Part shown: in pieces, positions 1 through 64,000 of the stretch | Layout of the letters: each line of letters begins with the position of its first letter | How positions within the stretch are numbered: the stretch's first letter is position 1 | DNA from: Bilabrum cf. latius | Taxonomy: Eukaryota | Assembly: GCA_965178125.1 (NCBI GenBank) | Contig: OZ237745.1 | Span: 372,001-436,000 of the forward strand | Direction: 5' to 3' | DNA length: 64,000 bases | Translations under genes and position numbers: made by a program | Notes under the pieces: generated by a model | Told to the model about the DNA's origin: nothing | Database searches by the model: none | Seen by the model: only the letters and a program-made list of their open reading frames with translations

Positions 1-219
1 CTGCATTGTAGATCGTTTTGGTGATTGCAGGCACATCGTGCCGAAGCGAAAATATTGCGGTGTCATTCAATTCATGTGTGTGGCGGCAAGAGTAATATAA
101 CCACATGGCATGCGTCTGGTCGTTTGTGTCAGGATCAAATACCCTGGACATGCTATTGATCCCAAGCAGCCTAGCTGCAACTACGCAGCAGCCTGAGGGA
201 CCGGGCGACATACTGGTAC

Positions 220-355
220 TGGGCAGCCCATTCAATGGTCTTGCAAGCAGCGTGCATGCAACTAGACACTCCATTAAAATGGAAGCTACGTGCATTTCTT
301 TCAATTGAAGCCCAGTAGAAATCTTATTAGCGAAGAAGCCAAAACAGGCAGCTGC
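220..355. repeat. Dispersed ~130-bp repeat, copy 1 (copy 2 at 47357-47482)
   Basis: Shared TGGGCAGCCCATTCAATGGTCTTGCAAG...GAAGCCAA..CAGGCAGCTGC, with scattered substitutions. Confidence 0.8.
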
Positions 356-434
356 TAGGCATCAACTCGTTCTCCTGGTTCTCTACTTTCCGACTATAAG
401 TGTGTGCTACTTCGGATGCAATTTTGATCTGGAT

Positions 435-3391
435 CAGACCTTACAAAACAGAAAATCAGATTTAGTTAATTTTCGCCGAAGCCATTAAGTAAATCGAGGC
501 TCCGAAAAACCATTAAGGAGGATATTACGAGTATAAATTTATGCAACGTTAGTTTGTAATTAAGTAGATAAACTCATTGGTGCCCTTTGTTTTTTAATTG
601 GATGATTTTTTTTGTGCGTATTGGTCAGTTGCACTTCGCGCAGGCTACGTGGCAGGCATGAAACGGTCCCGGCGGGCACCTAAAACCACTTCCAGAAGAG
701 TTAAATCGCGCACTAGTGTCTCCAATGGTTCATAGAAGGCTGCGGGGCCTAGTTATAGGGACCTCATATCTCACTATGAGAAGTAAGCAGAGAAGTGCAT
801 CCCGCTAACCGCAGCAGCCCTCAAAGCCGAACTTGAAGCGATGATGGACGATGACCGCAAATTAGCGAAGGAGAAATGGTTGAATGTCAAGTATGACTCT
901 GACGGAAAGCCTGTTTTGCCTTGCAAGGAGGTCGTGGGTGGTCATGGTGATGAAAAATCCTAGACAGCGCTGCTGCTGCGACAGCAAGCTCTCGCCGCCG
1001 TGCATGCCAGGTATCACGTGGTCGAAAAATCTGAGGCGATGCTGGCTGGAAATGTCTGGGCCAATCCTAAGCGAAGGCCGCCTATTCGCAGTAGATATGA
1101 TGACATGTTCAGCATTCTGGAGCGTAGCTCTGGTGCTGTGTTCATTGTGCCGAACGCTCTGGCAGAGAAACATGGTATGAAACCAGTTAATGATGGGCTG
1201 GTCTACGCAGAGGGCAGGATATTTGCTTTCGATTCTGTGTTCAAAAAGAACCAGAAAATGCCGGAAGGGAAGTAGCTAGAGCTGCACGTGCCGCCGCGCG
1301 GCATAGCGCGTCACTTCCGCGGAGGAGGGTAGACGACCGTGCTATCTAGCATGTCCAAGCAGAGCCAGGGTATTGCAGCTGATGTGCTCTATCGAATAAT
1401 CCTTGAGGTCGGGATGAAGTCAAACTCGGACGCGGGCGCGTCTAGGCTCCTGCAGATCAGAGCGTGGCCGGACATCATCCGAAAAGCTCAGGCTGCAGGA
1501 GCAGTGTCGCAGTCTACAATGAGGAATCGGCGAGTAGAAGCTGTCTCTGATGACAAAGATGGCATGCTTACCATTCTGCGAGAAAGCTTGCAAGGCGAGT
1601 ATCTTCAGATGGAGTTCGACGGGGGCAACATCAAGGGTGGGTAGTCATCCACCACCAAAGTGTTCGGAGTGTCGATCCGCAGCCTTTCAACTGGTAGGGA
1701 CTTCCTGGTAAGTCTGCAGTTAGTTGAGGGTTCTAGAGGTGCTGATGCTAAAGTGCTCCTTGAAAAGGCCTTAGAGCACGTTGGAGTATCGAAGGATCAA
1801 GTGGTGAGCATCGCGGCAGACGGCGCTGATGACAACCGGACTGCAACAGAGGCATTTGGCCTCTCAGTTGACGATATCGTGGTCTGCGCAAATCATGGCA
1901 TTGCCAGGTTTGCGTCAAATCTGCGGTCGAAGGTTCCATTTCTCAAGGAGTTCTATGCTAGACTGCAGAACATCTTCCGCGTTTCCGGGATGAAGGATCG
2001 GATGGCTGAGCTGACTCGCGCGAAGCTCCGGAAGCCAATGCTCTTCTTTCCAGATACTCGGTGGGGCCTGTTAGCACGACTCATCGACTATCTAAAATAG
2101 AATAAGTACGCTGCTTTGATCAAGCTGCGGCGGGTGTGCATGGTCATTCAAGCCAAGCGGAAGGACAAGACGAGTGGAAAGCTCCCAGGCTTCTTGGTGA
2201 TGCTTGGTGTCAAGAACCCGACTGCTTTGACAGAGGACAGTGAATTGCTGAAGGCTTCCGACGATGACGTCAGAGCTGGCATGCGGCAGGCAATTGCCTA
2301 GTTCGACTACCTCCACTCCAAGCTTCAGTACACCAACGAGGTGTCCCGGCTTGTGGAAGGGGACGACTACTTGCTGTCCTCCGTCCATAAAGTTACAAAG
2401 CTCTTGGAGAGGGTGGGAAAATCAGCCGAAGCAAGTGCTGCAGAACTGGAGAGCGCTAAATAGGACCTAACGAAGGACGGTGTGTCGCGGGAGAAGGCTG
2501 ACGAGCTGGTGCGAGGGGTCAAGGAAGCTTGCGATCAGACCCACAAGTCGTGGAGCAGAACCACTGAGAGAAAGGCACGATACTTCCAGGCCATGAAAAC
2601 AATTTACGGTTGCTTGTAGCATGGCAGCCCGGTGCAGCCAGTTCACTCTGAGGCTGATAGGAACGAGCGTGATGCAGCTCTGGTTGCACTTCGTGAGATT
2701 GCGAAGTGGCGGAAGCTCAACGCAGACATGCTTGAAACTGCTGTGGAAACCGCGCGCATCCTGCATGAGAACAAGATAGTGCTATTTGATCGTTCCTGTG
2801 AGGTCGGTAAAGCGTGGAGGAAATATGTGCAGGATGTGAAGGACAAGCTTACAGGGTCCGACCAGGAGCAGTTGCTTCACTACGCCGAGGCCATGCGCGA
2901 TGTTGCCAACCTACGCCTCAACAGCTCGAACATGGAAAGAAAGTTTTCCATGCTCGCTGCTGTGTGCAGCAATCAGCGGCAGGGAAGCCGACGCATCAGT
3001 ACAGTCCAGGATGTCATGCTACTTCGGGCAAACCCGACGACATTCATCGAAGACTGGGCATCGAGATGGATGTCGCGCAGCGGACTTCGTGCAAAAGCAC
3101 CGGAGATGCGAGAAGACCTGCGTAAGGTTCTAGATGGTGGAGGTATACGTGAGCAGGACGAATGGTGCCAACTTGGCCTTGGCGACGTCGAGATCGACAC
3201 AGATGGTGCGGCCACTGGAGCTCAGGAGTCCGCGGATTTGCCTGTTGCGGGTGCTACGTGATCAAAATATCCATAGATATTCATATTAAGACCATAATTT
3301 GTACATATATATGTGTTTCGGCCCTTAATTTACTTAATTTACTTAATGTCAATTTACATAATTTCTGAGGGCCCCAATCTTGTGAGGTCTG
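435..3391 (+). mobile_element. hAT-superfamily DNA transposon, apparently complete
   Basis: TIRs CAGACCTTACAA (435-446) and TTGTGAGGTCTG (3380-3391), 11/12 match. Perfect 8-bp TSD ATCTGGAT at 427-434 and 3392-3399. Encodes a transposase. Confidence 0.9.
841..3261 (+). CDS. hAT-like DDE transposase (~806 aa, TAG=Gln; true start may lie upstream)
   Basis: One frame broken only by TAG, ending TGA. Motifs EFDGG, IAADGADDN, CANH (CxxH), DTRWG and SSNMERKFS. Confidence 0.85.
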
Positions 3392-5677
3392 ATCTGGATT
3401 CCTCGGTCTGTTCACGATAACATGATACGTTTTCGTTTTACCGGTTCTAACCTTCATGTAGGACACCTCAGTCAAGTGGCTCGGACCATACGTCAATTAC
3501 TGACTATACTTCCACCCTCGCGAGGGGGATCCAACCTCGCGTTGATCGATGATGAGGACAAGATGATTGCGAAGGGCTTGGGGGCATACATGGATGTTGT
3601 GCCTTACATCCGGAAAATTGCCCAGGCAGACAAACAAACAGCCCTGGTCGATGCAACGATAGCAAGCTTCGACCCGATGACTGAAGAGAGAACGATGCAG
3701 CTAGCACCACTTACACTTGTGGACAATCCACACGACGAGGCAACAGCAGCATTCCGGCAGGTCATTGAGCATATCGCAACTCCATTCTAGAGAGGAAAGG
3801 AGCACGAGAAGCAGAAAAAAGCCTACGACGTGATTCCAGTAGACCTTCTGGCTGTACCTAGATGGTTCGCTGCGTTGTGGGACGAGGACACGGAGGATAC
3901 GAGACTGCAGAAGAAGAGGACTCGACAGCTATCAAAGCTGAAGTTCCCGAGCGCGAAGGACCCGCAGGCGATCGATGTGTATGCCTAGCGCATACGGAAG
4001 ATGCGCTAGCTTGCGGCGGGGATTCGGGAGTACAAGACTCTGGACGCGTTCGCGGCGTGGAGGATCAAGGGGGAGAAAGCGGCAGCACCAGGAGGACACA
4101 ACCAACGAGAACTGTGCAGAATGTACGATCTTGCAACTATTGCTCGCGTACTATTCCAACCCGGTTTCAAAGGTGGTTTAGTTCCTGAGGCTGGTCTGGC
4201 CGACCCCACACTGCGAAGATAGGTACGTGAGGCTCGATAGAGTCTCAATGGCCTGCTCGCAGCTGGATCGAACCGCCTCATGATTGCTGCCCCTACCAAA
4301 GGGCGTCACATGGAACCGCACATATTCCGTCAAGCGATGTGTGATCGACTGCAGATACCGTCTCCCACACAGGTATAGACCTGGGACGATTTGTGTCCTT
4401 ACTGCAATGACGGCAGGACGAGGTTCTCGGAGAGTAGAACTCATCATCTTACTTGCTCGAAAGCAAGGAAGTTCCAAGGCAGCGTAGCCTACGCCAGGCA
4501 TAACGCTCTGGAACGTGGACTCCTGGCCATCATAAAGAGGAGCGGAGCGAGCAACATCCGCACTCAGAAGATGGGGGAGATGATTGGCATCAGGAGGGTG
4601 CCAGATGTGTCCGTGAAGAATGTAACGGCGGAACAACTTGCTGAACATCGTACCAAGCAGGGAGCCAACATTCCGTACGGATACGAGAGGCTGGAGACGA
4701 CGGACTGCAAGGCAGACATCTCATTCGCTCTTGAGGGCAAACAGTACGCGATCGATGTCACCGTCTCTGACCCCCTCAGTCAGTGTTACGTGCAGACTGG
4801 CCATCACCCGACACGTGGATCCGAAGAACTGCCAGGGGCAGTGCTACGGGCTGCAGAAGCCGCAAAGTACAAGAGCTATTCTCTGGAGGTGCCGAAGGGG
4901 CTTCTGGAGGGCGGTGAGCTGCCTGTGGGTGTGAAGGTCATGCCGAAGTGCGTGCCAAAGAGTGGGATCACATTGATCCCTCTCGCGGCCCTAGCCAACG
5001 GCACACTGAGTGCATCGCTCATCGGATTCTTGCAACTGCTGGCCAAGCAGATCAAGAAGAAGCTGGGCGATTCCAGAGATGACAGAAGAAAGATGCGGAA
5101 TATGGTCGCCACGTGGGTTTCAGACCTTTCTCTGGCTATCTCCAGAGAGAATGCTGTAGCACGGCATAGTATGTTTGTTGAATTAGAACATGACATCAAG
5201 GCCTGCCATCTGGAATTCGCAGACAGCGACGACTCGGAAGACGACTGGAGTCATGTGCAGGACTTCAAAAGACGCAGGGTCAGCGCGTCGGCTGCGGGGC
5301 TGCGGTACCCGCGCAATGGTAAGGGGGTAGATTCCGAGGATGTGGATGGGGTCTCGCTCGATGCTTCCGAGGGAGAGAGCGACAGCCAGACAGAAGCTTC
5401 AGATCTGTCGGACGACGATACGAGCCAGCAGAGCGAGGATGGTGCCGAAGCTGGTGAGTGGAAGCGACCGAAGGCAAGTAAGCGAAGACGGTTCTCGGAA
5501 GAACTGTCCAGTCTGTCTGAGCTAAAGGATGATGATCGAGATGAGGATGGTGTGATGCCGTCAATTTCACTTAGTCCCGCGAACTTCAGGAATGTCGTGA
5601 ACGCGGAGCATGCAGTGGTTAAGGTTTCTCAGTAGAGTGCTGACACCAGGCCTGCGAAACGTGCGCGAAATGACTGA
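3392..5677 (+). mobile_element. 5'-truncated CRE/R2-type non-LTR retrotransposon ORF (RT thumb, CCHC knuckle, restriction-like endonuclease)
   Basis: Continuous frame with TAG only, to TGA at 5675-5677. Motifs LPPSRGG (thumb), FRQAMCDRLQIP, CPYC..H..C, ARHN, KADI..IDVTV and AEAAKYKSY. RT core absent; interrupted by the hAT element. Confidence 0.75.
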
Positions 5678-6163
5678 TTAGGGCGGGGGGTTTGCAAGAG
5701 GTCCTTTGTAGCGTGTTGAACTTTCAAGAAGAAGATTAAAACCTTCATGTTACCCTGATGCCTGCGCAGCTGCGGGTCCGATGCCTGCAATGAGCGGACC
5801 GGGTTCTCTCTCGTGCAGTTTGTTCGTTCTTTTTGGTCTGACACTGATGGGATCCTTCAGTGCATGAGTTGCCTAGAGGATCAACGGCTCCACAGCTGCT
5901 GCTGTTGGTGGGTGCGAGGGCTTGTCCAGCAGCAGCGTGCCTGTGTTAGGCGGGGAGGAGGCTCATGCAGCTCTGCGTGGATGCTCTGCTCCAGTTGGAC
6001 GCGCAGGGCGTGGAGGAGACGGCCCCGGGAAACTGTCCTGTGCAGCTCCCATTGTTCGGTTATCATGATGCTTGACCCTAAATCAGATTTTAGAATTCAG
6101 ATCGGATTTAGCCACTTTGGAGGACAAGACAAGAAGAAACATCTTCTATTCACGCAGCTCAAA

Positions 6164-9100
6164 ATGAGCCACATGTATCACTCTCTTTTGTTACACTCGT
6201 TTGGCCTCATGCCTTCTCCTGAGCACGACGATGCAGTCGAGTATATGGCCTCCGCTCTGGAGAGCTACCTTGAGGACCTCGGGACGGACGACCCAGAATA
6301 GGAGTTTGTGCACGATCTGGTACAGCCATTCTTGCACGACATGGGTGTATCGGATGAAGCGATATCTCATGGTCTGGCGGGCCTACTGCGCGGGATGTCT
6401 CGCATGGCGAAAGCAGCTGAATCCAAGGCTGGGCCCGCCTCATTTCCATTCGGTGCAGACAGGTCCGACAAAGTGGGTATTGATAAATCGGCAAGTTACA
6501 GTCTGGGACACACAGGCAAGGAGACTCTTGGTCGCGCGATCTCGCACGGATCTTCGGCGGGCGACGACCACGCAGTAGAGACCGGCACGATGGCTGGGCT
6601 GATGAACATCCTGGAGGATCCGCAACGAGAGTCGCGAGGAAAAGGTGTGGCTAGACGCCGTAGTCGCAATGGAAAAGGTAGGCGGCGCCGCCGTGGTCAA
6701 AATGCCCAGCTCGCGCAGTCATCGTGCGGGGCCGGCCTGCACGGGAGCGCAGGCGTAGGCGCAGGGACAGAGTCGGGTACTGGAACCGGGGAAAGGACAG
6801 GGAGTGCCAAAATGCAAATGTTGGCCGAGTCTTAGGGATCGTTTTCTGCACTCCCGCCTCAGTGGGAACGGTCCTCGCAAGCGGTGCATAAGCTTCGGGA
6901 GGCCTCGGAACCGGTTGCAACCTTCATTGGTTCCGCAGCGATGTGCGGCGCCACAGGGCACAGAGGACTGCAGGTGCGGAGGAGCGCGACGGCTGCTGCG
7001 GCGAAGAAAGGGAGAGGGTCAGAAATAGAGGGCAAGGCAGCCGGATCCATGGTGCGGCAGGACTCCGCTCTTGACTAGGCAGCTCCAATCGGAAAAGCAA
7101 TGGCATACATGTTGCAGGATGAGCAGGTGCTATCGGGCCTGCAGAAGGAACTCGCGGAGGCGCAGCGAAGGTTCCCTGGGTGCAGGCTGTCGCTGACCGA
7201 CGAGCCCCGCAAGGGGTTGGTGCTGTCCGTCAGGGCACTCGTCAGGACAGACAAGAGCGGGTTTGTGGCCCATATTCCGATGCAGTCCTTTGGAGAACCC
7301 GAGAGGAGGCCGAAGGTGAGGCTGGAAGTGGTGGACAGTGCGGCAGCGAGGCGCGCTGCAGCCGCTCTGGTGGGCGGCGGGTCCGTCGGCACGGCCATTC
7401 CAGCTGCCAACAGCGATCAGGGCTGGATCTCCCCTGCGATGCTGGGCTCGCTGAGTCGATCCCTGGAGCAAGTCGCCGTGATGAAGGTCCAAGAAGAGGC
7501 CCAGAGGTGCGCAATTGAGGACCACATGAAAGGTCTGGTGCCTGGATGGATGGGCAGGCTTGTAGAGGAGGTGCTCAAACATTGTCTGCATGCAGCTGCG
7601 AGAGCAGTAACTAAGGCCAGAGCCAAGCAAGCCGGTATGTCTATGGACGCGTACAAGCGCCAGCATGACGAATCCACCGCGCCCTCAAGCCATGGTGCTC
7701 TGACAACAGACCTGGCTGCACCAACCTTGCGGAGGGAATGGTCGCTACTGGAGGACACTGCGGGCAAAGGCATCCAAAAGAGGAGGAAGCAGGTAGCCAA
7801 GGAACTTGCGCAGAGCCTTGTATCATCCGATAGCGTCGCCCAATTTTCCGTCGGAGAAGCTCGCGTAAACCGAAGCACGGAGATGCTGCAGAAGGGTGTG
7901 GCCGGAGTGGGTATCAACAAAGAGATGGTCAAGACGTCAGTGCTGGGGTCGAACTTCCCTGACATGTATCGAGATGCTGCCACCTTTGTGCTGCTGGGGA
8001 GGCTGTATGTGTATGGTGAGCCCAATCGGAGGCACCTCTTAAGCATCGCGCCCGGGTCAGGCACACACCAGTGGGTCCACATTGAGCGCATGTCGACGCT
8101 CGATTGTTACCCACAGCTACGCCATCACTTTGCCCACCCCATGAGCAACGGCGAGGTGCTGATACACGCCGACCGGCGCTCACACAGCCCTGGGTTTTTC
8201 AAGCTGAAGGTGACGGCAGACCGTGTCGAAACACCGCAGGGGGGCACTACGCGGCGCGACAGGTGCACCATTACAAAGCTGCATGTGACGAGAGACTATT
8301 CAACGAAACATATCGAGGAGCGATATGGGTCTGTGTCGGTTCGGCTGCCGGGCGGGCGCCGCATTGTTGTTCTCGGTGGGCTCTAGCTGCCTCAAACTAT
8401 CCTCCCGCAGCTAAAATTGGCTCATGGCCAGGCCAAGGCACTGCCTGTCTATGCCGCGGAATACGCTGTCACGTAGCATCACTTGGTGGCTTTACTGGAC
8501 TTGTATCCCACTGGCAGCCAATCCAGGCGAGTTTACACGAGCGGGGCCATCCCGGAACGGCTGGTGGAGCACCGGGCCGTTGCATGCGGGCACAACGTGG
8601 TGGTGGTAGGAGGTGAGCCCTTGGCTCTGAGACAGGGGCTGACCGATGCTCGCGTGCTAGACTGCAGGCGTATGGTGTGGTATAACGTCGTGCTGCCGGC
8701 CGCGGCTCTGAAAGTCAGACCCAGGATCGATCCCATGCTCGCGAGGCTACCAGGAGCCACTGGGGTGCTGCTGTTTGGAGGCAGCATGGCAGACGGGACG
8801 CCCCTCGGCAGCCTGTACTCTCTCATGGTGGACATGACCACTGCAACGATGGACCCATCGGAGGTGCGCGCTGACGCAGAGAGCGAGATGGCGTAGCTAC
8901 GGGTGCAGCTGGACAAAAACCGCGCATTGCTCCGAAGGCTAGAGAGCATCGGCCGCGAGCTTATCACCGCCGATGATCTTACCAAAGTTGCTCACGCTCG
9001 CGTAGACATCGAGCGACTGAATCGGTTGCTGCGGCGGTCAATTGATGATGCGGTCAAGATTGAGCTGGCGAAACACGAAGTGCAGGGTCGCTGGGAACTG

Positions 9101-11263
9101 CTTCATACCAAGGGGAAGAACCCAACGCTTGTTGCAAAGAAGAAGGCATTGCCAGGTGCTACCGAGGTGCCGTCGTATTTTGACATCAGCCCGGTGGCAG
9201 CACAGGGCTCGATCGAGCGGCTTGGTAGCTCGCTCATCGTGTTCGGTGGCGTGTGGGCCGATGCAGAGCGCCGAAGCACCAAGCCAAACAAGAAGGCGTT
9301 CCTGATAGACTGCAATCAGCAGACCGTGAGGATCGCCGCGTCGCAGCTGAACTTGAACATCGCGAGGCTATGGGAAGAGCAGCTGCTTGTGGACGTACTG
9401 ATCCGGTGCCGCGGAGGGCAGACCATCCCGGCACACCGGTCGATTCTCACGCTGTTCTTGCCCTACTTCAGGCGTGTGTTCCGCGAGTTCCACGAGCTCG
9501 CGCTGGAGGGTGACAGCGACGATGACAGCGACAGCGACGATGACAGCGACAGTGACGCGTCAGATGACGGAGAGGAAGACGAGGAAGATGTGGACGAAGA
9601 GGAGGTGGAAGAGGAAGAGGTGGACGAAGAGGAGCAGTTCAGGAAGGCGCTGCTTGCGGACCTTGCAGAGCACGCGGGAGAGGACGCTGGGTACACTGTG
9701 GCCACGGTGACAACCAACTTATAGGATGGTACTGATGCAGACGATGACCACCCGGAAGGTGCACTGCACGGTGGAGACGATGGATTCATGACGGAACTAG
9801 ATGTCGAAGCTGCGGTCAAGGCGGCCCTGCGGCGGGCCTCGAGCATGGGTGCATGCAGCGCGGGAGGAGGGGGTCCCGTTGCCGCCCCCACCAAGGGCGC
9901 GTCGCTGCTGATGCCTCCTCTGGACCCCCCGGATGGCGTGATGGAGATCGAAGAGGACATGGATGGCGAGCTGCTGAAGCTCATCTTGGAGTACATATAC
10001 ACTGGCGGGATCGAGGTGCCTGCGGAGCGGGTGCAGGACGTGCTCGAGCTGGCCACGCTGCTGGGGCTGCATGTGACAAAAGAGGAGGCCGAGAGAGAAG
10101 AGGCCCGCAAGGTCGCTGAGAAGGAAACCGTCAAGGAGCTGAAAGCGGACCGGATGCGTGCGGGCGGTGGTGGCTCGAAGGACCTGAGGAAGAAGAGCAA
10201 GAAGTCTTCCAAGACGGCAAAGAGGAGGGGCCCGCCACCTCTCGAGTCCAGAGAAGTGCTGGATGGCGGAGTTGAGGCGCTCCGGCTGGGTAAGCTGGTG
10301 GAGCTGTGCTAGATGTCTCGCGGCGGTGGGGTGTCTGTCAACCGGTCGCCCACGATCGGACACGCATCGCCGGCGATGAGGGCGCACCTCCGGACGGGCA
10401 TTCTTCGAAACGAGGCCGTGGTAGAGCAGGAGAAGGCGGCCATCGCTGAAAAGGCTAGCGCAAATGCGGGTGGTACGATGTCGGCAGCAGCAGCTGCAGG
10501 CAGCGGAGTCAGTGATGAGGACGAAGACGGTGCGGGTGGCGGTATGGACGACGCTACTACCGGTTTTGACGATATAGTAAGTCCGTTTGTGCCTGTGTCG
10601 CTGGCGCACGTGGCCGGCTGCGACGTCATGGTGGTCGCGGGCGACGAGTCCGTGGCCATCCCTGCCCACCGCGCCATCCTGGCGGCCAGGTCACCCTACT
10701 TCCGGTCATTGTTCAACGCGGGCATGGCGGAGAGCAGAGCCGCCCGCGTGCCTGTGGGCATTGAAGACGCAGGGAGGGAGGTGACGGAGGCGTTTGTGCG
10801 GTTCCTATACGATGACTCGCTGGCTCGGCTGGAGCCAGACGACGCCCCTGCGCTGCTGACGCTGGCCAACCTGCACATGCTGCCGAGGTTGGCCAGCATG
10901 TGCGAGAGGCTGATGCTGAAGTCGTTTGACATGAGCGATCCCGAGAGCGTGCTGGGTATCTACTGCTTTGCTGCGTACCAGGGCCAGGCGGGGAGGAGGC
11001 TCATGCAGCTGTGCGCGGATGCTCTGCTGCAGTTGGACGCGCAGGACGTGGAGGAGGCGGCCGGTCACCTGGCTGGAGAGGTGGACCGGAGCGTGCTGGT
11101 GCAGCTGCAGCGGACGCTTCGGCAGGGCAAGGGTCGGAACTTTGGCGCGGTTGACTTGCCGGGTGGTCGCGGCGGCAAAGCTGGCGAGGGAGCAGGTGAC
11201 GATGCAGGCAGCGGGGAGATGGAGGCTTCCGATGGTCCGGCAAGCGGAGCTGGGCTTGGGTGA
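6164..11263 (+). CDS. Large Kelch-repeat + two BTB/POZ domain protein (LZTR1-like architecture, ~1699 aa)
   Basis: Nine track ORFs in one frame joined by 8 TAGs, ending TGA. Kelch-like VVVGG/LLFGG/IVFGG. BTB motifs IPAHRSIL..YF and IPAHRAILAARSPYFRSLF..GMAES. Confidence 0.8.
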
Positions 11264-12520
11264 GTTGTTTCATCTTGCCAAACAAGGTGCACTTCTGCTA
11301 GTCATGTTTTGAACATGTGTGTGGTATTTTATATGTCCGATCCTTGTAATCGGTTGGTTCCAAATCAAGTGTTCTCAACACTTCCTCATCCGCAAATGGT
11401 CGGGTGATCCGATCCCTTGATCTGGGTCACTCGTCAACCACACACCCTCACCTCCACTTGCCCGGCCTGTGCCTCCCCCTTCCAATCCGCCGTATCAACC
11501 AGGTGACCCCACCAATCATATCCTCCTCCACGAATCCTCCACCCGCTTGGTAAACCGTCACCCCTCCCTACTCTGCCCTGACCCCCCCCTCACCCCCTCT
11601 CGCCCACCCCTAGCCGCCGCTCCTGCTCGTCCTTTACTGGACTGGCCTCCTCGACCACGCTCTCTCCTCCACTTCGCTGCATCGCACCTTACTTTGCACC
11701 TCGAGCGGGTACCGCGCCCAAAGCGCGACCTCAATCTCAGAGACCTCATTGGCCTCACCAACCAAAATACCAACCGTTTCCCTCCGCCCGTCATTGCTTC
11801 GTAGATCCCTTCTATCATATGGACCCAATGACCGCATGCCGAAGGATCGAGGGCGCTTCGGCCGATTTGAGCCATGTCGTGGTAGCTCGACGCAGGTCGT
11901 GCTGGGGGTCTCGTGGAAGCCATATCCGAGTTCTCCGGGTCGATGAGGGCCCGGCCAGCGAGCCCGGGGAACCACCCATTGGCATTGGCGTTGGAGCCTG
12001 TGGCGTGAACCACACGCACACGGTGCAGCGTCTGGGGGTGCACCCGCGGTTGGCCGCTTTGAAGGCGTCGAGGACGCGCGCATGCCTAGTTAAGCACCCA
12101 CCCGCCCTCGGGGTGGAAAATACAGAAATACATTGTTGGGTAAAGATTCCGTAAGCACCCAGATGCACCGTCGCCCCCGAAGGGGTTTGGGTGATCACCT
12201 AGATCCAGAGGAGCCCTAAAACAAGGACTACAAGACCCCCGACCCCTTCAGGCCAAAGGCCCCCCGTTCTCAGCCTATGCCGCCGAGTTCCCATTCTTCG
12301 CCATCAGTGTGGTCCCCCACAGGCCCCCAGCCTGTTGCCTTCACAAGTAGAAAGCATACAGGTGCGGAGCGTGTGCCCGGCACAAGGCGCGGTCCAGTCC
12401 CACATCGGGGTCCCCGGTCGAGACCCACCATTTCCTCCTCCATGACCGTCTCTGCGTCTCACGATCCTGGGTGGTCGTTGTCGTTGGGTAGTGTGTGCTT
12501 TGACTCAATCTAATCCGGTA

Positions 12521-15500
12521 GTAGCGCCGCGCGCCTACAATAGCGTGAGCGGAACCTAATTTGGCCGCGCGCGCGGCCGGCGAGGCGCCCGGATCACGTC
12601 TGGGCGCCTGTGAGCGGGCGGGGAGAAAATCTGCGAGAAAAAACGCGCCTACCCTGTTCTTTGTGACTGTATGCGTCGATTGCGCCGGGATTTTGTCGGC
12701 GGCAAAAAATTTGCCGGCGGCGCGGCGCGACTGTCTCGCCCACTACGGCCGAAATGTGCGGGGCCGGCAAATTTTTTCCTCCTATGGCCTCCATGACAGA
12801 TTTTTGATATGTTGCTCTTTATGGTATGTTCTTTCGATTATGGCCGTGTGAGAGGCTGGGTGGCGCTGGTTCGGGCGCAAGGAGCCTCTCTAGCTGGCCC
12901 GTCCAAACGCGCTCTCGGCTGTCTGCAGGCCGCCCCAGCGGCTGCATCCGCATGCGCGTGAGCGGAGCCTGTTGTTTGATCTCATATCTATCACACGAAC
13001 CGAAGGGGCGCTCCCGTCCGGGCGAAGGAGTGCCGACTTTCGACCCGAACGGGTCCCGCCACCCCGCTGCGGCCCTGGCAAGCCGCGCCTGGCCGTCGCT
13101 CCCGCGGCCCCCAGGGCCGTCAGGGCGCTCAGATGTCTTACTCTGGGTCTGGCAGCAAGGGGGGCTTCTTCCCTCCGATCGCGTCGAACGCCTAGGTCTG
13201 CTTGCTGGCCAACACAGCCGCCGCCCCCCTGGCCGCCAGAGGCGCGTCCTCCGCGTCTTCCCCCTCGGCATCGATCTGCGCCTCGGAATCGGGAATTTCC
13301 TCGCCCACCGGATCGGGGGCGACATCGCCGCCCTATTCTGCGTCCATCATCGCGGCAGCCGCGCCCTTTGCAACCCCGTCGCCCGCCGCGCCCCCCTCGT
13401 CCTCGTCGTCGCTCCCGTCGCGGAGCCACCCCCGGTCCTCCGCCATGGCTCTCGCAAGTGTCTCTTAGTAGTCCATTCCCTTTTGCGTGGGCAGCCTCCT
13501 TCGGCTCGATCTGCGAGAGGACCGGTGCTGGGGGTCACGGGACCGCTTCGAGGCGTCCGCAAGGCCGTCCTCGTCCTCGTCCTCGCTGGACCCACCCCCT
13601 GCCTTGCGCGCTGTGGCAAGCGCCCCCCGCCTTCGACTTCCGTCCCTGACCCTCCCCTTGCTCGGCCTGCCTCTACCCCTCCCCTGTCTGCCCCTCGTCC
13701 GCCCATTGCTGGTGCCGTCCGAGGCAGAGTTAGAGCCTCTCGCAGGGGCAGCAGCCGCGCCTGCTCTGCCCCCCCCCCCCCCCCCCCCCTCCGATGGTGG
13801 GGCGAGCGATCCGCAGCCACTTGGTAGCAATGGTGTGGATCCGCGCCCACCACGAGTCTCCTCCTGTTGCTATGCAAGCCCTCCTGTACTCTGCCTGAGG
13901 GTGATGCCCACGACGCTCTCGCCAGGCGCCAGAGAAGGTCCGCCCCCGTTGAAGTGTACTCCATCAGCAGCTGCCACCCGAACTTCCTGAGCAGCTCGTT
14001 GTCACATGTAGCCAGCAGCGGGGGCGGCAAGAACACCAGCCGCCCCATGCTCCCGATGCGATAAGCCTGCATTCGCAGGCCCACCACCACGGTACCCGCC
14101 AGATCCTGCCTGAGGCCTGCCATGCGGCTCGCGTCACTCCCCCCTCCTCCTCGCCCCACCTCACTCTACATACCCCAGGCAGCTTCCCGCTGCGCTACAG
14201 GTCGTCGCCCTCCGTGCAGGGGTTCAGGCAGCACTGGCTCCTGCCCCCCCACCCCCTGCTCCTGCCCTGGGAGGGGGTTCGGCGGACCCGCACTCGCCGC
14301 CGGACTCCTCGATCGGGAGGGGAAAGTCCACGGGTGACGGCCCCCCATACGCGGGGACCAGCTCGGCGTCCCTGCCGCCGGGCTCCACGGCGGCCACCTG
14401 GTCGGGGGTGGCCGGGCGGAGCAGGGCGCCCGCCAGCACGTCGGCAGCATAGTTGATCCGGCGCTCCCCGCCTGGCGAGCCCGAGACAACGGGTTGGATC
14501 TCGTCCGCGACGCGACCGACAAAGTTGAACGCCCTCAGATCGGCCGCACCGAGCGCGCGGGCGGCAGAGGCAGCGTGCTGCCCGGCGCGGTTGGCAGTCA
14601 AGTGATACGCCTGTGGGCGCCTCTGCCTGAACCCGACCGCAAAAGCGAGCAGATCAAGACAATCGGAGATGATTTTGTCATCCGGGGACCACTTGTGCAA
14701 CACATGCCGCGCCATTCTGCGCAGCATGACAGCGATCACCGGCGAGTGCCGCTGGATCAGCGCCTAGCTTATCGCTCTGCTTCATATCCTTTCCATCCGC
14801 CTGGGACTCCAGTCCTCTTTACCGCTCATAATTGTAGTAGTTGCACGTAAATCGGCCTGTCTCGGGCACATATCGTTCAAACCCCCGCCAGAATGCTCGC
14901 ACATGCCGAGAGAGATGGTGCAGGCGAGCAGAACCCCGAGCACAGACGCCGCGCTTGCGCTGCAATATCCATCCTCCAGGTCAAGCGCGGATGCAAGCGG
15001 TGTGTCATACTGCACTAACTGAGAAAATGCAAGCGATTCGGTTAGAATGGGCTCGTGTGGCCGTGCAGTCGGCAAAAACAAGCGCAAATCTCGTCGTGGA
15101 GAGGGGTGCACCCAACTCCCTCGTTGCCGGTGGCCCCATCATGGAATAAGTCCAAATCGCGAGCAATGATTGATAATCCCAAAATACATCGCTGGCACAA
15201 GCGCAAAATCGGGCACTCAGCTGCACACCGAGAAATGAGGCTGGCAACGAGGCCCTGATCGCTCAATTTCGGCTCTCCGCGCTGGTGACCACTCAAAGGC
15301 GAGACAACCCAAGCAAGCCAGCCGGTGAAATTGATATTATGCATTGTCTTACATTTAAATCTGCCATGGACTTGCAGGTAAACCCTGTATTCGGCGCGCA
15401 AGAAGCTCGCGATGTGGCGTCCGCCAGATCAGCTAGGCCACGCACGTTCCGAGGTTTGCCTGCTTGAGTATCGAAAATGACGAGACAAAAACAGCATTAT

Positions 15501-15817
15501 ACAAGACTTTGCGACTTTATACATAAATGAGCCGAGGGGCGGCTTGCGCGCTTCGCTAGAGCGCGCGTGGAAGCGGAGACAAGCTCGAGCCGTTTGGGCG
15601 GCCGAGGTGGCTCGGTCCACCGTGAGGCCACCCGCCACGCATGGCTGCGCGTGCAAACGAGGGCAAACGATTTTAATACCATACAAACTCACATCCCCGG
15701 CAACAGAATCACCATACACCCATCGTGGTCGGAGCTCGAGTGCCGCAAAGTTTCAGATTCCCGTCCGGGGCCGCCAAATTAGGTTCCGCTCACGCTATTG
15801 TAGGCGCGCGGCGCTAC
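12521..15817. mobile_element. Unclassified ~3.3-kb element bounded by perfect 45-bp inverted repeats, with degenerate minus-strand coding remnants
   Basis: GTAGCGCCGCGCGCCTACAATAGCGTGAGCGGAACCTAATTTGGC at 12521-12565 and its exact reverse complement at 15773-15817. No clear TSD or transposase motif. Confidence 0.6.
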
Positions 15818-16073
15818 CGCGGATTCCAATTTGTCCCTAGTGTAGGCGGCGTCGCGGCACTGTGAAACACGCCACACTTCTCTGCTATTAAATTGAATAT
15901 GTGAGCACTTCTGCACTTGTTTTGCAGCGAAGTCGCATCAAGTGCTGGCCCGCAGCGTGTAGTAGGCCAAGATATTCAAGATTCTGGTATTGTTGCTCAG
16001 CAGGGGATGCTTGCTGCGTCAACTTCTTCTCTATTTTGATCAAATATAAGGTGATCTCACTATATCTGTGCAG

Positions 16074-25262: not shown

Positions 25263-25298
25263 TTTTGTATTCTATAGTATTATACTATAGAGTTAGAT

Positions 25299-60519: not shown

Positions 60520-62910
60520 AATGGAAAATAAAATACCTCGATCTAGATTCAATGTCAAGGCGAAAGATATCCTGCGGGGCAAGTGAGACCATTCCCGACA
60601 CGACGCCCTGTGCTCCCGTCCTTCGTCGGCATTCGCTTTCTGCAAAGCAATAGTTTGTAGGGACTATCGCAGAACTGAGTACGGCGAAGAAGCCCTTAGC
60701 AACTATGTGACTGAGCTTTTCTTCGATGGGTCGACGCCAGTAGACCCAAGAAGGGAAGACCTGGTGTCTGACTTGAATTCATTTCTTGGCTCAGGTAAGG
60801 AGCCGTCCTATCGTGCAGACTCTGCTGCCAGCCGGCTGTAGATCAAAACCATATCGCGAAATTGTTCATATCTCTTATTGCAGGTACTGGCCGGGTAGTT
60901 GACGAGCTTCTCGCCCTTGGTGATGAGCGCGAAGTGGCGGTAGGCTCCAAACGATCGCTTGCTGAGGAGCAGATAGACACGGAAGGAGGCTCCAAGCGGA
61001 GACGTGTTGACAAAGGATCAGGAAGCCACGATTCATTGAATCCAATTGAAGCCAGACCACCCTCACTGCCTGGCACGGACCCAGTGCTCGCCCAGCAGCA
61101 GATGATGATGATGGCAATGATGGCTCAGGCCGCAGGCTCGCTGCCTGCTGGCGCTGGCAGATCCGAGCCGGTCAAGCCGTCTTCCTCTGCCTCAACAGGT
61201 TCATCTCACGCTGTGCTGGGTCCGTCAATCGGCAGTTCGGACTCGTCGGCTGGGACGCACAAAACGAGCGCAGCCTCACACTCGGAACCCCCATCGTCGG
61301 CAGCCCAACCAGCAATCGTGAAGGGCCCACTGGCTGGCGCCGCAGACGATGACCCGGACGATGATGCAGGGTGGGCGGACCAGTCGACTGCGGACATTCA
61401 CCCACCAGCAGGACCCGCCACTTCCTCGTCCACCTCATCATCAGCATCCGCATCAGCAGCATCCTCATCAGCCTCATCCTCATCAGCAGCATCCTCGGCC
61501 ACAGGCACCTCTGCAAATGGTGGCGCGCTTAGCTACACGGGTCCATTGGATGGCCTCGTGGTGCGGCTCTCAGGGCTGCCTCAATTCATCGACTCGGACG
61601 CGAGGCTGGCGCGGGAGATGTCGCTGCATGGCAGCGTGATCGACGCCCGGCTGGCAGAACGGGTCCGGGGCGGCGGCGACGTGCTGTTCCGGTCTAGAGG
61701 AGAGGCTCTCCGCGCTGCATCGTCGCAGCAGCTGGTGCAAGGGGTGAAGGGGGTCCAGGGATGGCTGCAGAAGGACGGCGGGGCCTTCGGGAAGGAGAGG
61801 ATGATGGCGGAGCGAGAGAAGAAGGCGAAGGAACAGTAGCGCGGTAGGGGTGGCAGTGGCACTGGCGAGGGGTCGACCCGGCCGCTTTCAGCCCAGGAGA
61901 AATCGGCACAGATGCGGCTTGACTTCATCAAGGGTCAAGAGCCTCTTGTGGAAGCATTCAGGGCCACCCTGCAGGAGGTAAAGCGAAACCGTGGCAGGCT
62001 ACATGAGTTGGATTCGGCGGGCGAGGGAGACTCTGCAGAAGCGCGAGATTTGTTGAAGAAGACCTAGGAGTTGGCAGTGCGCGCGAAAACGGAGGGGAAT
62101 CGGGTTGTAAACGCTGCACGCACAGCTATGACGGCCGCTCAGGCTGACGCCGAACGGGTCCAGGGATTGCGGGAGCGACTGGATGCAAAGTCTGGCGGGT
62201 CCTCAAGCGGCCCCAGCAAGTCTGGAGGAGACCGACACCCTTCTTCCCTGGTGCGAGCCAGCAAGTCTGGCTACCTCAAGGATCCCGCCCACTCTGCATC
62301 TTCCCCTCGGGTCGGCGCCAGTGGTGACAATGGCAGGGCGGAGGGCAGCAACGGTGCGGTGCCAGACAAAGAGCAAGTGGAACATGTCAAAGACGCGGGA
62401 GATGATGAAGAAGAGTAGGCCGAGGATGGCGCCGGTACTGGAGCTGCAGAAACAGGCGCATCGGCTGAGGATCTGTTCTTCGCGACTTCTGTGCCGCCCT
62501 CCGCGCGCACTGAGGGGGACCGTGCTGCGGCTGACGGCAGCAGCCCTGCAGGGCAAGCGTCTAGCGGTGCAGGGGGCTCGGCCGCACCAGTTCCTGCAAC
62601 TTCTTCTTCTTCGTCGTCGTCGTCATCTGGTGCAGATGCCGCATCTGCGGAGGCTTAGCCCAGTGCATCGGGACGCACTTTGTCAATCGAGGCATCCAGC
62701 ATACCAGGCTATGATCCATCCGCGCCTGCCTCCTCCCTTGATGCCCTGAAGGTGCACATGGGCGCATTTGGCGCCGTGGAGGGTGTCACTGCCGACGGGG
62801 ATAATGGTGCGGCTGTCCTTGTCCGCTTCGGAGACGCCAAGGCGGCGGAGATGGCGTCACAGATGGGTAGAGCCATGGGAGGAAAGTTGCTCGATGTGAA
62901 GGTGGTGTGA
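60520..62910 (+). CDS. PWI-like + RRM RNA-binding protein (RBM26/27-like; introns near 5' end)
   Basis: ALSNYV..L.SFLG..VVDEL (PWI-like), two RRM-like segments and a coiled coil; joined by TAGs; ends TGA. Confidence 0.6.
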
Positions 62911-63089
62911 CTCTTCTGGGTGAAATGGGTGAGTTAATAAGGCTGGAATTCCTGATATTAAATTGTTTTGCGTAGAAATCCGGATTCCGGATACAGCCAA
63001 TCCAGGTCCTGGTAGAACGCCGCAGTGCCCAATAATCGATGCTTCGAAACAAATGGGGCCGTCCACCGGATCAACTAAAGAGAACCACA

Positions 63090-64000
63090 TCATGCAGGGG
63101 GGCCAGGGGGTGGCCGGGGCGCCTGTTTCTTGCCGGTTGGTGCCGGCGCTTTCGGGCTTTTTCTGCCATGGGGCGGTCTGCGCGCACTGGCTGGCCTGCC
63201 TGCTGCCGGCGGCGACGACACTAAACTGGAAGGATCTTTCGCAGTACTCGGCGGTGCTGGGGGCGGCCTGGCCCCTTTCGGGGGTGCAGGCCTGGAGCTC
63301 TTGCTTGGGGGTGATGGTCTGCCTCCCTTGGGTGCCTTGGGTGCGCCGCGGCTTGGGGGCGCTCTCGGCCCGTTGCCTGGTGGGTCTCTTGGTGGGGCTC
63401 GGGGCGATGCGGGGGCGCGGGAGGGCCGCGGGGGAGCCTTCGGCGGTGACTTGGGAGCTGTCGAGTCCCCGGTGCTCTTGTTCCCCGCGTCCTTTTGCTC
63501 CGGTTTTCCCGGGATGAGTGGCATGGCCCTCTGGCGGATCCTTTCGGGCGGCTCACTCGAGCTCCTCCTCGTCCGCTGCATTGCCTCGATGCTGAACCTG
63601 TCTTCATCGCCATCTCCGCCATCCTCATCATCTCTACCAGCTCGATTCCTCGCGTCCCAAGCCCCAGCACCATCTGCAGCGCTGCCAGCTCCGGCGCTAT
63701 CACCGGGAATCTCGCTGTCTAGAGGCGATGAGCCTGTCCCTGCCCTGCTCCGTCCAGTGGGGGCTATCGATGGCTTGCCACCTCTGCTTGAACCATTCTT
63801 GCCAGTGCTTGCGCTCGTTTCATCACTCCTGTCCGTGCCCTTCCCGTCCTCGCCACTGCCAGCCGCAACGTCCAATCCGCGGCTAGACCGAATCCTGCCG
63901 ATCGCACCGAGCATCTGCTGCGAATCAGTGCCGCTGCCTCGGCGCCGGATATCGCCCTCGATCATGTCGCGCAGAGCGGCCGCGTCGTGCTCTTCATCGC
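63090..64000 (-). CDS. 3' end of a proline-rich protein (runs off the window)
   Basis: Long open frame with a Pro/Lys/Ser-rich C-terminus. Confidence 0.55.
   Translation of the reverse strand, partial: DEEHDAAALRDMIEGDIRRRGSGTDSQQMLGAIGRIRSSRGLDVAAGSGEDGKGTDRSDETSASTGKNGSSRGGKPSIAPTGRSRAGTGSSPLDSEIPGDSAGAGSAADGAGAWDARNRAGRDDEDGGDGDEDRFSIEAMQRTRRSSSEPPERIRQRAMPLIPGKPEQKDAGNKSTGDSTAPKSPPKAPPRPSRAPASPRAPPRDPPGNGPRAPPSRGAPKAPKGGRPSPPSKSSRPAPPKGARPPPAPPSTAKDPSSLVSSPPAAGRPASARRPPHGRKSPKAPAPTGKKQAPRPPPGPPA

Follow-up and report, generated by a model that had tools for sequence, protein, structure and literature searches.

Which amino acid, if any, is specified by UAG in this genome, and are UAA and UGA kept as stop codons? 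The question was raised by the window (the whole 64,000-nucleotide stretch analysed), in which reading frames of host genes, transposons and an integrated virophage are interrupted by TAG. It is highly probable, in our assessment, that the window is read with a code of the NCBI table 15 type, that is, a nuclear-cytoplasmic code in which UAG specifies glutamine and UAA and UGA are stops, in a eukaryote placed by BRX1 near Cafeteria among the Bigyra stramenopiles. Separate, independent tests on the sequence support each of the three parts of this reading: UAG is sense, it means Gln, and UAA still terminates.

Open reading frames were measured as the total number of residues in ORFs of at least 300 aa. 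Under the standard code the window holds 4,765 such residues. With TAG read as sense the total rose to 20,127, compared with 1,753 ± 774 (maximum 3,634) in 100 dinucleotide-preserving shuffles, a gain ~24 sd above the shuffles. Reading TAA as sense added almost nothing (5,513 residues vs 908 ± 550 in shuffles; a gain of 748 aa vs 627 in shuffles). TGA as sense gave 16,301 residues, a gain that is mostly an effect of composition, since shuffles already reached 9,829 ± 1,533. In 21 long stop-to-stop ORFs (13,202 codons), 159 in-frame TAG were counted; 14 of these ORFs terminated in TGA and seven in TAA. Both opening statements of an earlier, sequence-only reading of this DNA were thereby borne out, namely that host genes, transposons and virophage all carry in-frame TAG and that intact genes end in TAA or TGA. 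In host genes, TAG codons fall within or upstream of the Pfam matches of BTB/kelch, BRX1, SDR and GWT1, and for the last three within the domain itself (Brix, adh_short and GWT1); in the virophage they occur in the ORFs for integrase, PolB, MCP, penton and ATPase. Everything expressed in the host cytoplasm would be adapted to the code: host genes, the piggyBac-like transposon, the retrotransposon and the endogenous virophage.

Host genes were identified by Pfam matches. A BTB/kelch ORF of 1,834 aa (5759-11263, forward strand; BTB E 1.5e-30) carries eight in-frame TAG, its best-matching BTB stretch (residues 1620-1721) lying near the C-terminal end. GWT1 (PIG-W; 49569-50960, reverse strand; E 3.6e-50, residues 34-440) has three TAG within the domain span, in columns that sit in variable loops and are uninformative on the residue. 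The short-chain dehydrogenase (SDR; 57797-59101, forward strand) has one TAG (residue 266) within adh_short (E 7.8e-36, residues 85-293), in a column equally uninformative on the residue. BRX1 (53613-55301, forward strand; Brix E 9.5e-43; PDB BRX1 E 2e-85) contains two in-frame TAG and ends in TAA. One of the two (54825-54827) lies in the conserved Brix core, and its column was Q in 119 of 120 homologues, Cafeteria among them, with a gap in the remaining one; it is the one strongly diagnostic host-gene site (n=1).

Contigs from sequencing runs were compared with the window at this site and at three GT..AG introns (59863-59948, 60583-60672 and 60792-60880). The intron joints were present in contigs of runs X5, X7 and X8 and absent from X1 (taken as the best DNA run), whose contigs ran through all three intervals. 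X5, X7 and X8 contigs also spanned the BRX1 TAG with 0 differences from the window, and, over four runs from three studies, contigs matched the window at this codon with 0 differences. Run types were guessed (X5 was flagged 'probably DNA' yet has spliced joints), and the evidence comes from contigs rather than raw reads; at that level the TAG is retained, unedited, in contigs from runs with spliced forms. These data bear on the proposal that the code is standard and that the in-frame TAGs reflect pseudogenes, assembly errors or RNA-edited sites, in other words damage or artefact. A degraded appearance is common in endogenous viral elements, and stop codons can arise from errors of assembly, according to the available part of PMC10120064. 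Against this, frames were interrupted by TAG only, never by TAA or TGA, throughout the 13,202 codons; an essential gene, BRX1, carries TAG; the agreement among runs and studies was complete; and independent metagenome contigs of free-standing virophage relatives (L004-L007) have the same TAG-only pattern, with 12 TAG positions common to the window and L006. The artefact explanation is effectively refuted already and is assigned a negligible probability.

The integrated virophage was delimited at 18913-43486 by repeat search and reading of the flanks. Its terminal inverted repeats (18913-19893 and 42325-43486) have arms of 681 nt and 296 nt that are 100% complementary, a 5-base direct repeat (TACTT) at both flanks constitutes a target-site duplication, and GC content is 0.27-0.43 within the element vs ~0.6 outside. 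Pfam matches on the forward strand at 20167-24933 identified an integrase (rve and Chromo), a DUF5906 primase-helicase and a protein-primed PolB (DNA_pol_B_2), which contain six, ten and five TAG, respectively, and all terminate in TGA. The features of a mavirus-like element (rve integrase, protein-primed PolB, inverted repeats and target-site duplication) were thus all found. The morphogenetic module is complete, with a double jelly-roll MCP, a penton, a packaging ATPase and a clan-CE protease. The major capsid protein (MCP; 27950-29767, reverse strand; MCP_V20_C E 1.9e-29, Sputnik_MCP_1st E 4.8e-24) has 14 in-frame TAG and a TGA end. The penton (minor capsid protein; 29828-31093, reverse strand; V18-19 E 1.8e-08) has 16 TAG, of which the first two probably precede the start codon. 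The ATPase (33073-34056, reverse strand), matched by 2,952 representative proteins at E ≤ 0.001, has nine TAG and ends in TAA. The endogenous virophage is apparently recent and intact.

Two transposons carry the same codon. A retrotransposon inserted in the virophage (34856-41516, forward strand) was recognised by split direct repeats that are 100% identical (A1 34856-35031, B1 41054-41184, A2 41184-41359 and B2 41386-41516) and by RVT_3 and RNase H Pfam matches; its ORF (35033-40819) encodes 1,928 aa with 12 TAG. A piggyBac-like transposase ORF (43678-45417, reverse strand; DDE_Tnp_1_7 E 1.7e-09) has six TAG and a TAA end.

The virophage protease (34159-34719, forward strand; start codon at 34165; five TAG, TAA end) had no sequence match in Pfam or PDB and was assigned by predicted fold. 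Its AlphaFold model (pLDDT 90.2) gave 30 Foldseek matches at E ≤ 0.001, the best of those listed being adenovirus protease, Ulp1, SENPs, poxvirus I7L, ASFV pS273R and bacterial deubiquitinases, and the modelled fold matches that of a clan-CE cysteine protease. The sequence-only reading had proposed Gln-diagnostic TAGs in BRX1, in this protease (34531-34533 and 34537-34539) and in an ankyrin-repeat exon (16830-16832, forward strand). All of these coordinates were exact and in frame; the diagnostic value held for BRX1 and for the second protease TAG and was lost for the other two. The second protease TAG (residue 125) stands at an invariant Gln nine residues before the invariant Cys-Gly; all 39 standard-code homologues had Q in its column, as did 7/7 rows of a smaller alignment. 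The column of the first is mixed (K15/P9/Q6/R4 and others). The ankyrin TAG falls at a variable G-x-T position, occupied in its sister repeats within the window by W, E, Q, R or N; it is real and fits Gln, but it is no test of that meaning.

The retention of UAA and UGA as stops was assessed in 4,392 codons of virophage genes, which are AT-rich; in-frame TAG numbered 106 and TAA and TGA 0 each, a lack to be expected in part, since those two codons define the ORFs. The other two frames of the same genes hold 107-161 TAA and 81-151 TGA. Among virophage Gln codons CAA outnumbers CAG (116 vs 44), so TAA would see heavy use if it were readable; TAG makes up ~40% of Gln codons and is spread throughout the genes. 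No TAA and no TGA was found inside gene-level alignments. When either codon was read as sense, alignments of true genes gained at most ~20 codons at their ends and only shadow frames opened. The TAA terminators of BRX1, ATPase and protease fall where homologues end, that of the ATPase at the same alignment column as the end of the L006 orthologue. A code of the Condylostoma type, ambiguous or context-dependent, would have UAG read as Gln internally and also as some terminators, or UAA occasionally read through. The 21 ORFs are the whole sample, transcript 3' ends are not visible in contigs, and some ORFs (e.g., SDR) have a TAG a few dozen codons ahead of the TAA or TGA stop that could be a terminator. 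Such a code is nevertheless very unlikely: a TAG terminator was needed by 0 ORFs, MCP homology runs on past the last TAG to a shared C-terminus, and the internal use of TAG and the TAA-free alignments given above speak for fixed meanings.

The residue specified by UAG was examined in a near-pair test between the window and L006, an environmental virophage that is 57% identical and also TAG-recoded (3,488 aligned codon pairs, self-calibrated). Opposite 73 window TAG sites, L006 had Q at 18, TAG at 12, K at nine, E at seven and other codons at the rest. Log-likelihood ratios were +29.6 for Q, +8.8 for K and +7.7 for E, so that Q was favoured by >20 nats. With the direction reversed (43 L006 TAG sites against the window), the ratios were Q +10.9, K +4.4 and E -11.8, and both directions combined placed Q over E by ~44 nats. 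The L006 Gln codons opposite window TAG were CAA at nine sites and CAG at nine; as the two are equally frequent, the link is at the level of the amino acid and not of mutational proximity. TAG was paired with Q at 25% of sites, close to the 29% at which true Q was conserved, whereas true E and K were conserved at ~49% and TAG stood opposite E or K at only ~10-12%. A second panel of 84 standard-code loci (column-weighted, 58 TAG columns) gave Q +7.37, E -0.05 and K -6.08, and Q still came first when at least 10 or at least 30 loci per column were demanded.

Smaller and more distant comparisons were less uniform, and some of them furnish the case for UAG being sense with the meaning glutamate or another polar residue, e.g., lysine. 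E came first in a distant test against four standard-code loci (E 21.2, Q 7.6; 103 pairs, pseudo-replicated) and in the ATPase against 146 representatives (E 3.0, Q 2.0; eight columns only), where several TAG columns are E-rich (e.g., residue 238, E 0.66). In the 84-locus panel, columns with a majority of at least 50% at the laxest threshold numbered seven for E, five for Q, two each for L, D and N and one for G. PDB alignments at the BRX1 TAG column have Q in the human protein and E in two yeast proteins, and K was second in both near-pair directions. Single conserved columns also stand at odds with Gln (MCP column 237, G in 6/7; penton column 305, Y in 3/3). These observations are outweighed by the near-invariant Q columns of BRX1 and of the protease active site, by the low counts of E (7/73) and K (9/73) opposite window TAG and of E in the reverse direction (0/43), in view of the conservation of true E and K, and by the combined near-pair margin and a column-weighted panel in which Q stands 7.4 nats above E. 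A meaning of Glu or Lys is therefore considered most improbable.

Leucine and serine, the amino acids of the other known UAG-only nuclear reassignments, were evaluated in the same tests. One protease column (residue 89, TAG) is L in 27 of 39 homologues, and Ser was the most frequent residue in the pseudo-replicated four-locus count (16/103). Leu was nonetheless strongly rejected in every likelihood test (-60.3 in the reverse near-pair direction, among the three worst; -162.8 in the four-locus test); L006 had 0 Leu codons opposite window TAG, and an L006 TAG stood opposite TTG at one of 43 sites. Ser was rejected or near zero (near-pair -33.7; 84-locus panel -7.5; four-locus +0.6, in the test where E and Q reached +21.2 and +7.6). 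Either meaning is scarcely credible. Glutamine is the best-supported meaning of UAG on these codon comparisons, and the earlier proposal that UAG is Gln with UAA still a stop is upheld by the two conserved-Gln columns, by the L006 and 84-locus tests and by the TAA-terminated ORFs.

The host was placed by BRX1. The best named match was Cafeteria (65% identity), and in a tree of this one gene Cafeteria shared a clade of 12 rows (SH-aLRT 98) with the window and two environmental sequences, a clade that adjoins labyrinthulomycetes. By this gene the host would be a Bigyra stramenopile near Cafeteria, which we take to use the standard code.

UAR = Gln codes (NCBI table 6) are used by many ciliates, hexamitid diplomonads, some ulvophytes and Streblomastix. 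They resemble the window in the capture of a stop codon for Gln and differ in that UAA is also Gln, whereas TAA was absent in frame from virophage genes here and ends a third (7/21) of the ORFs. UAG-only reassignment, as far as the available parts of PMC11687900 and PMC5304391 go, is known for Gln in Iotanema and in Protocruzia and some phyllopharyngean ciliates, for Leu in a rhizarian and for Ser in Scotinosphaera, consistent with the statement that uncoupling has been reported in few lineages. Iotanema spirale (Fornicata) is alike in being a non-ciliate with UAG = Gln and UAA as stop, and tRNA-Gln(CUA) and an altered eRF1 are expected in both; it is an anaerobic metamonad represented by a transcriptome only (PMC5304391, in part), whereas the host here is a stramenopile by BRX1 and is represented by genomic DNA that includes introns, transposons and a virophage. 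Protocruzia tuzeti and the phyllopharyngeans show that UAG can pass to Gln without UAA and that uncoupling recurs (PMC11687900, in part), but they are ciliates, that is, alveolates prone to code change. The window BRX1 is stramenopile-like, and the 64 kb of the window are gene-dense and carry mobile elements as well as GT..AG introns. A change of UAG alone, with UAA as stop, is also seen in Rhizaria sp. exLh (UAG = Leu) and Scotinosphaera (UAG = Ser), where the amino acid is a different one.

Decoding would depend on a tRNA-Gln whose anticodon, CUA, is a single mutation away from that of tRNA-Gln(CUG), as established knowledge and the available part of PMC5304391 suggest. The CUA anticodon cannot pair with UAA, and an eRF1 N-domain with poor recognition of UAG would act alongside it. 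In Iotanema the eRF1 change is in the GTS motif (PMC5304391, in part). No tRNA gene was found in the 64-kb window or in L004-L007, and the window does not contain the eRF1 gene.

Two systems resemble the virophage. Endogenous viral elements of Streblomastix strix are likewise integrated viruses of the polinton/virophage kind that use the host's variant code; that host is a metamonad with UAR = Gln, whereas here UAG alone is recoded and the virophage is complete, with inverted repeats that are 100% identical and with free relatives (PMC10120064, in part). A virus that carries the non-standard code of its host implies a long association. The mavirus-like elements of Cafeteria are comparable in that a low-GC virophage, bounded by terminal inverted repeats and equipped with an rve integrase, resides in a GC-rich, bicosoecid-like host genome and has taken up a split-direct-repeat retrotransposon; Hackl et al. 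reportedly described in 2021 that endogenous mavirus-like elements of Cafeteria carry Ngaro retrotransposons. They differ in that the code of the window is non-standard and that its MCP is closer to that of Sputnik (3j26, capsid protein V20, E 4.7e-33) than to 6g45 (E 1.4e-09), presumably the mavirus MCP.

An independent origin of the UAG-only code is probable, since the host is none of the known UAG-only lineages and its BRX1 groups with Cafeteria inside the stramenopiles; no stramenopile case of UAG-only reassignment was found reported in the literature searched. On balance, we lean towards a broader view: stramenopiles would here show their first observed change of the nuclear genetic code, and the rare assignment of UAG alone to Gln would have arisen independently in a near relative of Cafeteria, the model host of giant virus and virophage. 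A whole virophage clade would have co-evolved with this lineage (the endogenous copy and its free metagenome relatives, alike in sequence and in TAG positions, with TAG as a major Gln codon), and so, by implication, would the helper giant viruses of that clade.

Uncoupled UAG/UAA reassignments are few, and each independent case tests why both codons usually move together and how eRF1 can give up UAG yet retain UAA. In a genome-sequenced relative of Cafeteria with an apparently intact virophage, code evolution would be tied to a tractable virus-host-virophage system. With standard-code gene callers, nearly all of the genes examined here would be broken and the virophage would look degraded. TAG recoding is in turn a handle by which virophages from the environment (e.g., L004-L007), and perhaps giant viruses too, may be assigned to this host lineage; if the broader view is true, the code would serve in the environment both as a barrier to virus-host association and as its marker.

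The window is eukaryotic nuclear DNA with a GC content of ~0.57–0.62, dropping to 0.27–0.43 at roughly 19–35 kb and 41.5–43.5 kb. Open reading frames (ORFs) were counted in the standard code and with one stop codon at a time read as an amino acid (TAG-sense, TAA-sense or TGA-sense). The longest ORF was 561 aa in the standard code versus 1,928 aa TAG-sense, and many long ORFs were then open. Residues in ORFs of at least 300 aa were compared with 100 dinucleotide-preserving shuffles in 1-kb blocks. The standard code gave 4,765 residues in 13 ORFs (shuffles 281 ± 324), TAG-sense 20,127 residues in 38 ORFs (shuffles 1,753 ± 774, maximum 3,634), TAA-sense 5,513 residues (shuffles 908 ± 550) and TGA-sense 16,301 residues (shuffles 9,829 ± 1,533). 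The gain is far beyond a composition effect for TAG only.

Codons were counted in 21 stop-to-stop ORFs that homology or length supported, their boundaries being stops and not gene starts. These contained 159 in-frame TAG in 13,202 codons, which together with the ORF gain bears out the sequence-only reading that UAG is a sense codon here. As that reading had also stated, all three classes of gene carry in-frame TAG: 20 in 4,285 codons of six host genes, 33 in 4,094 codons of four transposons and 106 in 4,392 codons of eleven virophage genes. Pfam searches with X placed at TAG identified host genes (BRX1, a short-chain dehydrogenase [SDR], BTB/kelch, B-lectin, GWT1 and MACPF), mobile elements (a piggyBac-like transposase and a retroelement ORF with RNase H) and a complete set of virophage genes (rve + chromodomain integrase, DUF5906 helicase, PolB, GIY-YIG, major capsid protein [MCP], penton and ATPase). 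Two neighbouring long ORFs at 787–5677 (824 and 763 aa, with 8 and 7 TAG) were without significant match in the Pfam search and may be part of an uncharacterised mobile element. Within an ankyrin-repeat gene (16000–18600), short exons of roughly one repeat each lie between GT..AG-type introns, and a second in-frame TAG (17441–17443) directly precedes an exon end.

Two TAG codons fall in invariant or nearly invariant columns. The BRX1 TAG (54825–54827) lies within the conserved core in the context WFRHY-TAG-VLD, and its column holds Q in 119 and a gap in one of the best 120 database homologues, which take in Cafeteria, oomycetes, labyrinthulomycetes, fungi and animals; in PDB alignments the human protein has Q and two yeast proteins have E. 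For the putative protease (ORF 34159–34719), Pfam and PDB sequence searches returned nothing but spurious WD40 repeat matches. An AlphaFold model built from a 40-sequence alignment (pLDDT 90.2) gave 30 Foldseek matches with E ≤ 0.001, the best of those listed being adenovirus protease, Ulp1, SENPs, poxvirus I7L, ASFV pS273R and bacterial deubiquitinases, which we take to be clan-CE cysteine proteases. Invariant columns include G63-H64 and C134-G135, and the alignment also gives Y33, Y81, D86 and D168. Residue 125 (TAG 34537–34539) is Q in all 39 standard-code homologues. Clan-CE proteases form their oxyanion hole with an invariant Gln that lies a few residues ahead of the catalytic Cys. Both sites had been singled out from the sequence as diagnostic of Gln, and both columns agree, the oxyanion role of the second being the one established for the family. 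The remaining four protease TAG columns are variable, residue 89 among them (L in 27 of 39 homologues). The SDR codon, inside the adh_short domain, faces A or a gap, and three in-domain TAG of GWT1 (PIG-W) lie in variable loops; both genes are uninformative, and two N-terminal GWT1 TAG are probably outside the coding region.

Relatives of the integrated virophage were collected from several sources. An MCP protein search returned five relatives; two database homologues (P0001 and P0002) have Q at window TAG positions and were not counted as evidence, as they may have been translated with a table in which TAG = Q. Scanning IMG/VR with the single MCP protein found no relative, with an MCP alignment only three distant loci, and with an ATPase alignment 80 more virophage-like loci, in none of which (0/80) was a TAG-specific ORF effect seen. 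A metagenome scan gave four virophage contigs (L004–L007) with an MCP 57% identical to that of the window. Their proteins are 44–60% identical to those of the window virophage, their genes end in TAA or TGA, and 12 TAG positions are common to them and the window. Like the window, they need TAG to be sense: in L006, ORFs of at least 100 aa hold 3,588 residues in the standard code versus 6,925 TAG-sense, and the MCP has an open frame only if TAG is translated. By their predicted frames, these contigs form an environmental clade of TAG-recoded virophages, from which it follows that sampled environments harbour the recoded host lineage as well as its virophages.

The meaning of UAG was estimated from the window virophage proteins aligned to L006 (3,488 codon pairs), with each ordinary amino acid's substitution profile in the same pair serving as the model, so that the test is self-calibrated. 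The 73 window TAG sites face Q 18, TAG 12, K 9, E 7, S 5, T 4, R 4, A 3, D 3, V 3 and five singletons. Relative to background, the log-likelihood ratio was +29.6 for Q, +8.8 for K and +7.7 for E; all other residues scored below zero. With the comparison reversed, the 43 TAG sites of L006 are opposite TAG 12, K 8, Q 7, S 3, T 3, R 3, H 3, four singletons and no E (Q +10.9, K +4.4, E −11.8). TAG faces CAA as often as CAG (9 each), which makes the signal one of the amino acid and not of one-step mutation. TAG is matched to Q at 25% versus 29% for true Q to Q; conservation is 48–78% for true E, K, L, S, Y and W.

Tests at greater distance were mixed. With a standard-code panel of 84 loci and each TAG column counted once, Q scored +7.37, E −0.05 and K −6.08 over 58 columns covered by at least 3 loci, Q +5.58 and E +0.02 over 45 columns (at least 10 loci), and Q +4.49 and E +1.9 over 30 columns (at least 30 loci). 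Other counts, however, leaned towards Glu. Four standard-code loci with each homologue counted separately gave E 21.2 and Q 7.6; the ATPase, compared with 146 of 150 representative homologues after omission of the four nearest as possibly recoded, and with 8 of 9 TAG columns usable, gave E 3.0, Q 2.0 and K 1.3; and when the 84-locus panel was scored by majority residue, the laxest threshold gave E 7, Q 5, L 2, D 2, N 2 and G 1. A few conserved columns also have G, Y, L or D opposite a window TAG. True Q faces Q in only about 8–20% of cases at this range, and the distant tests are low in power because Gln sites are so poorly conserved there. A composition test, which asked which residue runs short if TAG is ignored, did not separate the candidates: once TAG is included, Q and E both exceed standard-code homologues. 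Gln is favoured over Glu: on these alignments, we take the near-pair test, together with the two invariant columns, as decisive for the meaning. The assignment of UAG to Gln first made from the sequence is thus upheld by BRX1 (119/120), the protease (39/39), the near pair (+29.6) and the panel (+7.37).

UAA and UGA were examined as stops. The 21 ORFs terminate in TGA (14) or TAA (7: BRX1, lectin, piggyBac, ATPase, protease, GIY-YIG and orf25299), in keeping with the earlier description of gene ends. In the virophage genes the two other frames hold 107–161 TAA and 81–151 TGA each versus zero of either in the correct frame, a zero that is partly built in because the ORFs are bounded by TAA and TGA. 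An independent check came from L006: when TAA or TGA was allowed as sense between it and the window, the alignments of true genes (helicase, PolB, MCP, penton, ATPase, protease, GIY-YIG and others) did not grow, and any TAA or TGA in them lay no more than a few codons ahead of the start or past the shared stop. Other TAA- or TGA-containing alignments were weaker antisense or off-frame shadows. A count of these codons over all HSPs was rejected as misleading, since such shadows of real genes align too. Virophage genes use CAA 116 and CAG 44 times, and TAG makes up 106 of 266 Gln-type codons with TAA at 0; in such AT-rich, CAA-rich genes, TAA would be heavily used if it were decodable. That UAA is kept as a stop, as first proposed, agrees with the seven TAA-terminated ORFs and with the true-gene alignments, none of which TAA-sense extends.

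Eight public sequencing runs, seen as contigs, cover parts of 51000–60900, and four were compared with 51000–64000. X1, the best DNA source, matched the window exactly in two contigs (8,495 and 9,641 nt). GT..AG intervals at 59863–59948 and 60792–60880 are joined in contigs of X5, X7 and X8, and that at 60583–60672 in X5 and X8 only; X1 runs through all three. Because these contigs join intervals that X1 spans, we infer that X5, X7 and X8 contain spliced RNA, run types being guessed, none of the runs being listed as RNA and X5 being flagged 'probably DNA'. Their BRX1 contigs show 0 differences over 53730–55175, 53859–55117 and 53642–55175, and the BRX1 TAG is therefore unchanged. In each of the four runs compared, the B-lectin region (55340–57500) had a very high summed contig depth together with numerous variant letters, small indels and internal joints, which suggests a gene family with internal repeats that is multi-copy or highly polymorphic.

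The virophage is the low-GC element at 18913–43486. Its inverted terminal repeats are 100% identical over about 1 kb (arms 681 and 296 nt) and hold 165-nt direct repeats and an 11-nt tandem repeat; the 5-base TACTT directly adjoins both ends. The MCP matches Sputnik V20 (E 4.7e-33) and the core genes are all open under TAG = Gln. From its sequence, the element looks complete and recently integrated, and is possibly inducible. A 52-nt motif occurs at 19909–19960, 21327–21378 and 23041–23092 (copies 2 and 3 at 85% and 65% identity to the first). Copies 1 and 2 end in ATG, that of copy 2 being the helicase start codon, and copy 3 ends about 18 nt inside the PolB ORF (23074–24933); the motif may be a common promoter or leader, perhaps recognised by a helper giant virus. 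A GC-rich 6.6-kb retroelement (34856–41516) is inserted just past the protease gene. Its direct repeats are split, follow the order A1...B1-A2-B2 and are all 100% identical. It carries the 1,928-aa ORF with RNase H, and Pfam gave no significant match to a tyrosine recombinase or RT domain. This architecture resembles that of Ngaro/DIRS elements. Ngaro elements are present in Cafeteria's endogenous virophages, and the insertion resembles those. Identical repeats and frames open under TAG = Gln suggest that both insertions are recent and possibly functional. Outside the virophage, an inverted pair of about 45–50 nt (~12520–12580 / 15760–15825) encloses a 3.3-kb GC-rich segment with long minus-strand ORFs and a run of about 25 C (13770–13792), which may be another DNA transposon.

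The best named match of BRX1 was Cafeteria roenbergensis (65% identity); closer matches (99% and 88%) were found in further assemblies only. In a quick maximum-likelihood tree of this one gene (37 rows), the window grouped with these two sequences, the trio lying within a 12-row clade that includes Cafeteria (SH-aLRT 98), itself nested in a 16-row clade (SH-aLRT 95) adjoining labyrinthulomycetes. The host is tentatively placed in Bigyra as a bicosoecid-like stramenopile, tentatively because a single gene was used.

A tRNA with anticodon CUA would read UAG and not UAA, and would be one mutation from tRNA-Gln(CUG). ARAGORN found no tRNA gene within the 64-kb window or L004–L007. Changes would also be expected in the eRF1 N-domain, where PMC5304391 names the motifs GTS, NIKS and YxCxxxF and neighbouring positions. 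In PMC11687900 and PMC5304391, UAG-only nuclear reassignments comprise a rhizarian (Leu), Iotanema (Gln), Scotinosphaera (Ser) and, among ciliates, Protocruzia and two phyllopharyngean lineages (Gln) and another phyllopharyngean (Leu). The full-text literature searched, whose scope leaves out most subscription journals and supplements and so makes an earlier report possible, held no nuclear case in a stramenopile or bicosoecid; its only stramenopile matches were mitochondrial codes. The suggestion that this host may be an independent case agrees with the literature searched, and the host placement behind it comes from one gene. The recoding is real, and a nuclear code with UAG = Gln and UAA and UGA as stops is supported; it probably arose independently in a stramenopile. 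As in the one precedent, Streblomastix, where PMC10120064 describes an integrated virus that shares its host's variant code, the integrated virus here uses the code of its host, and the virophage clade is adapted to that same code.
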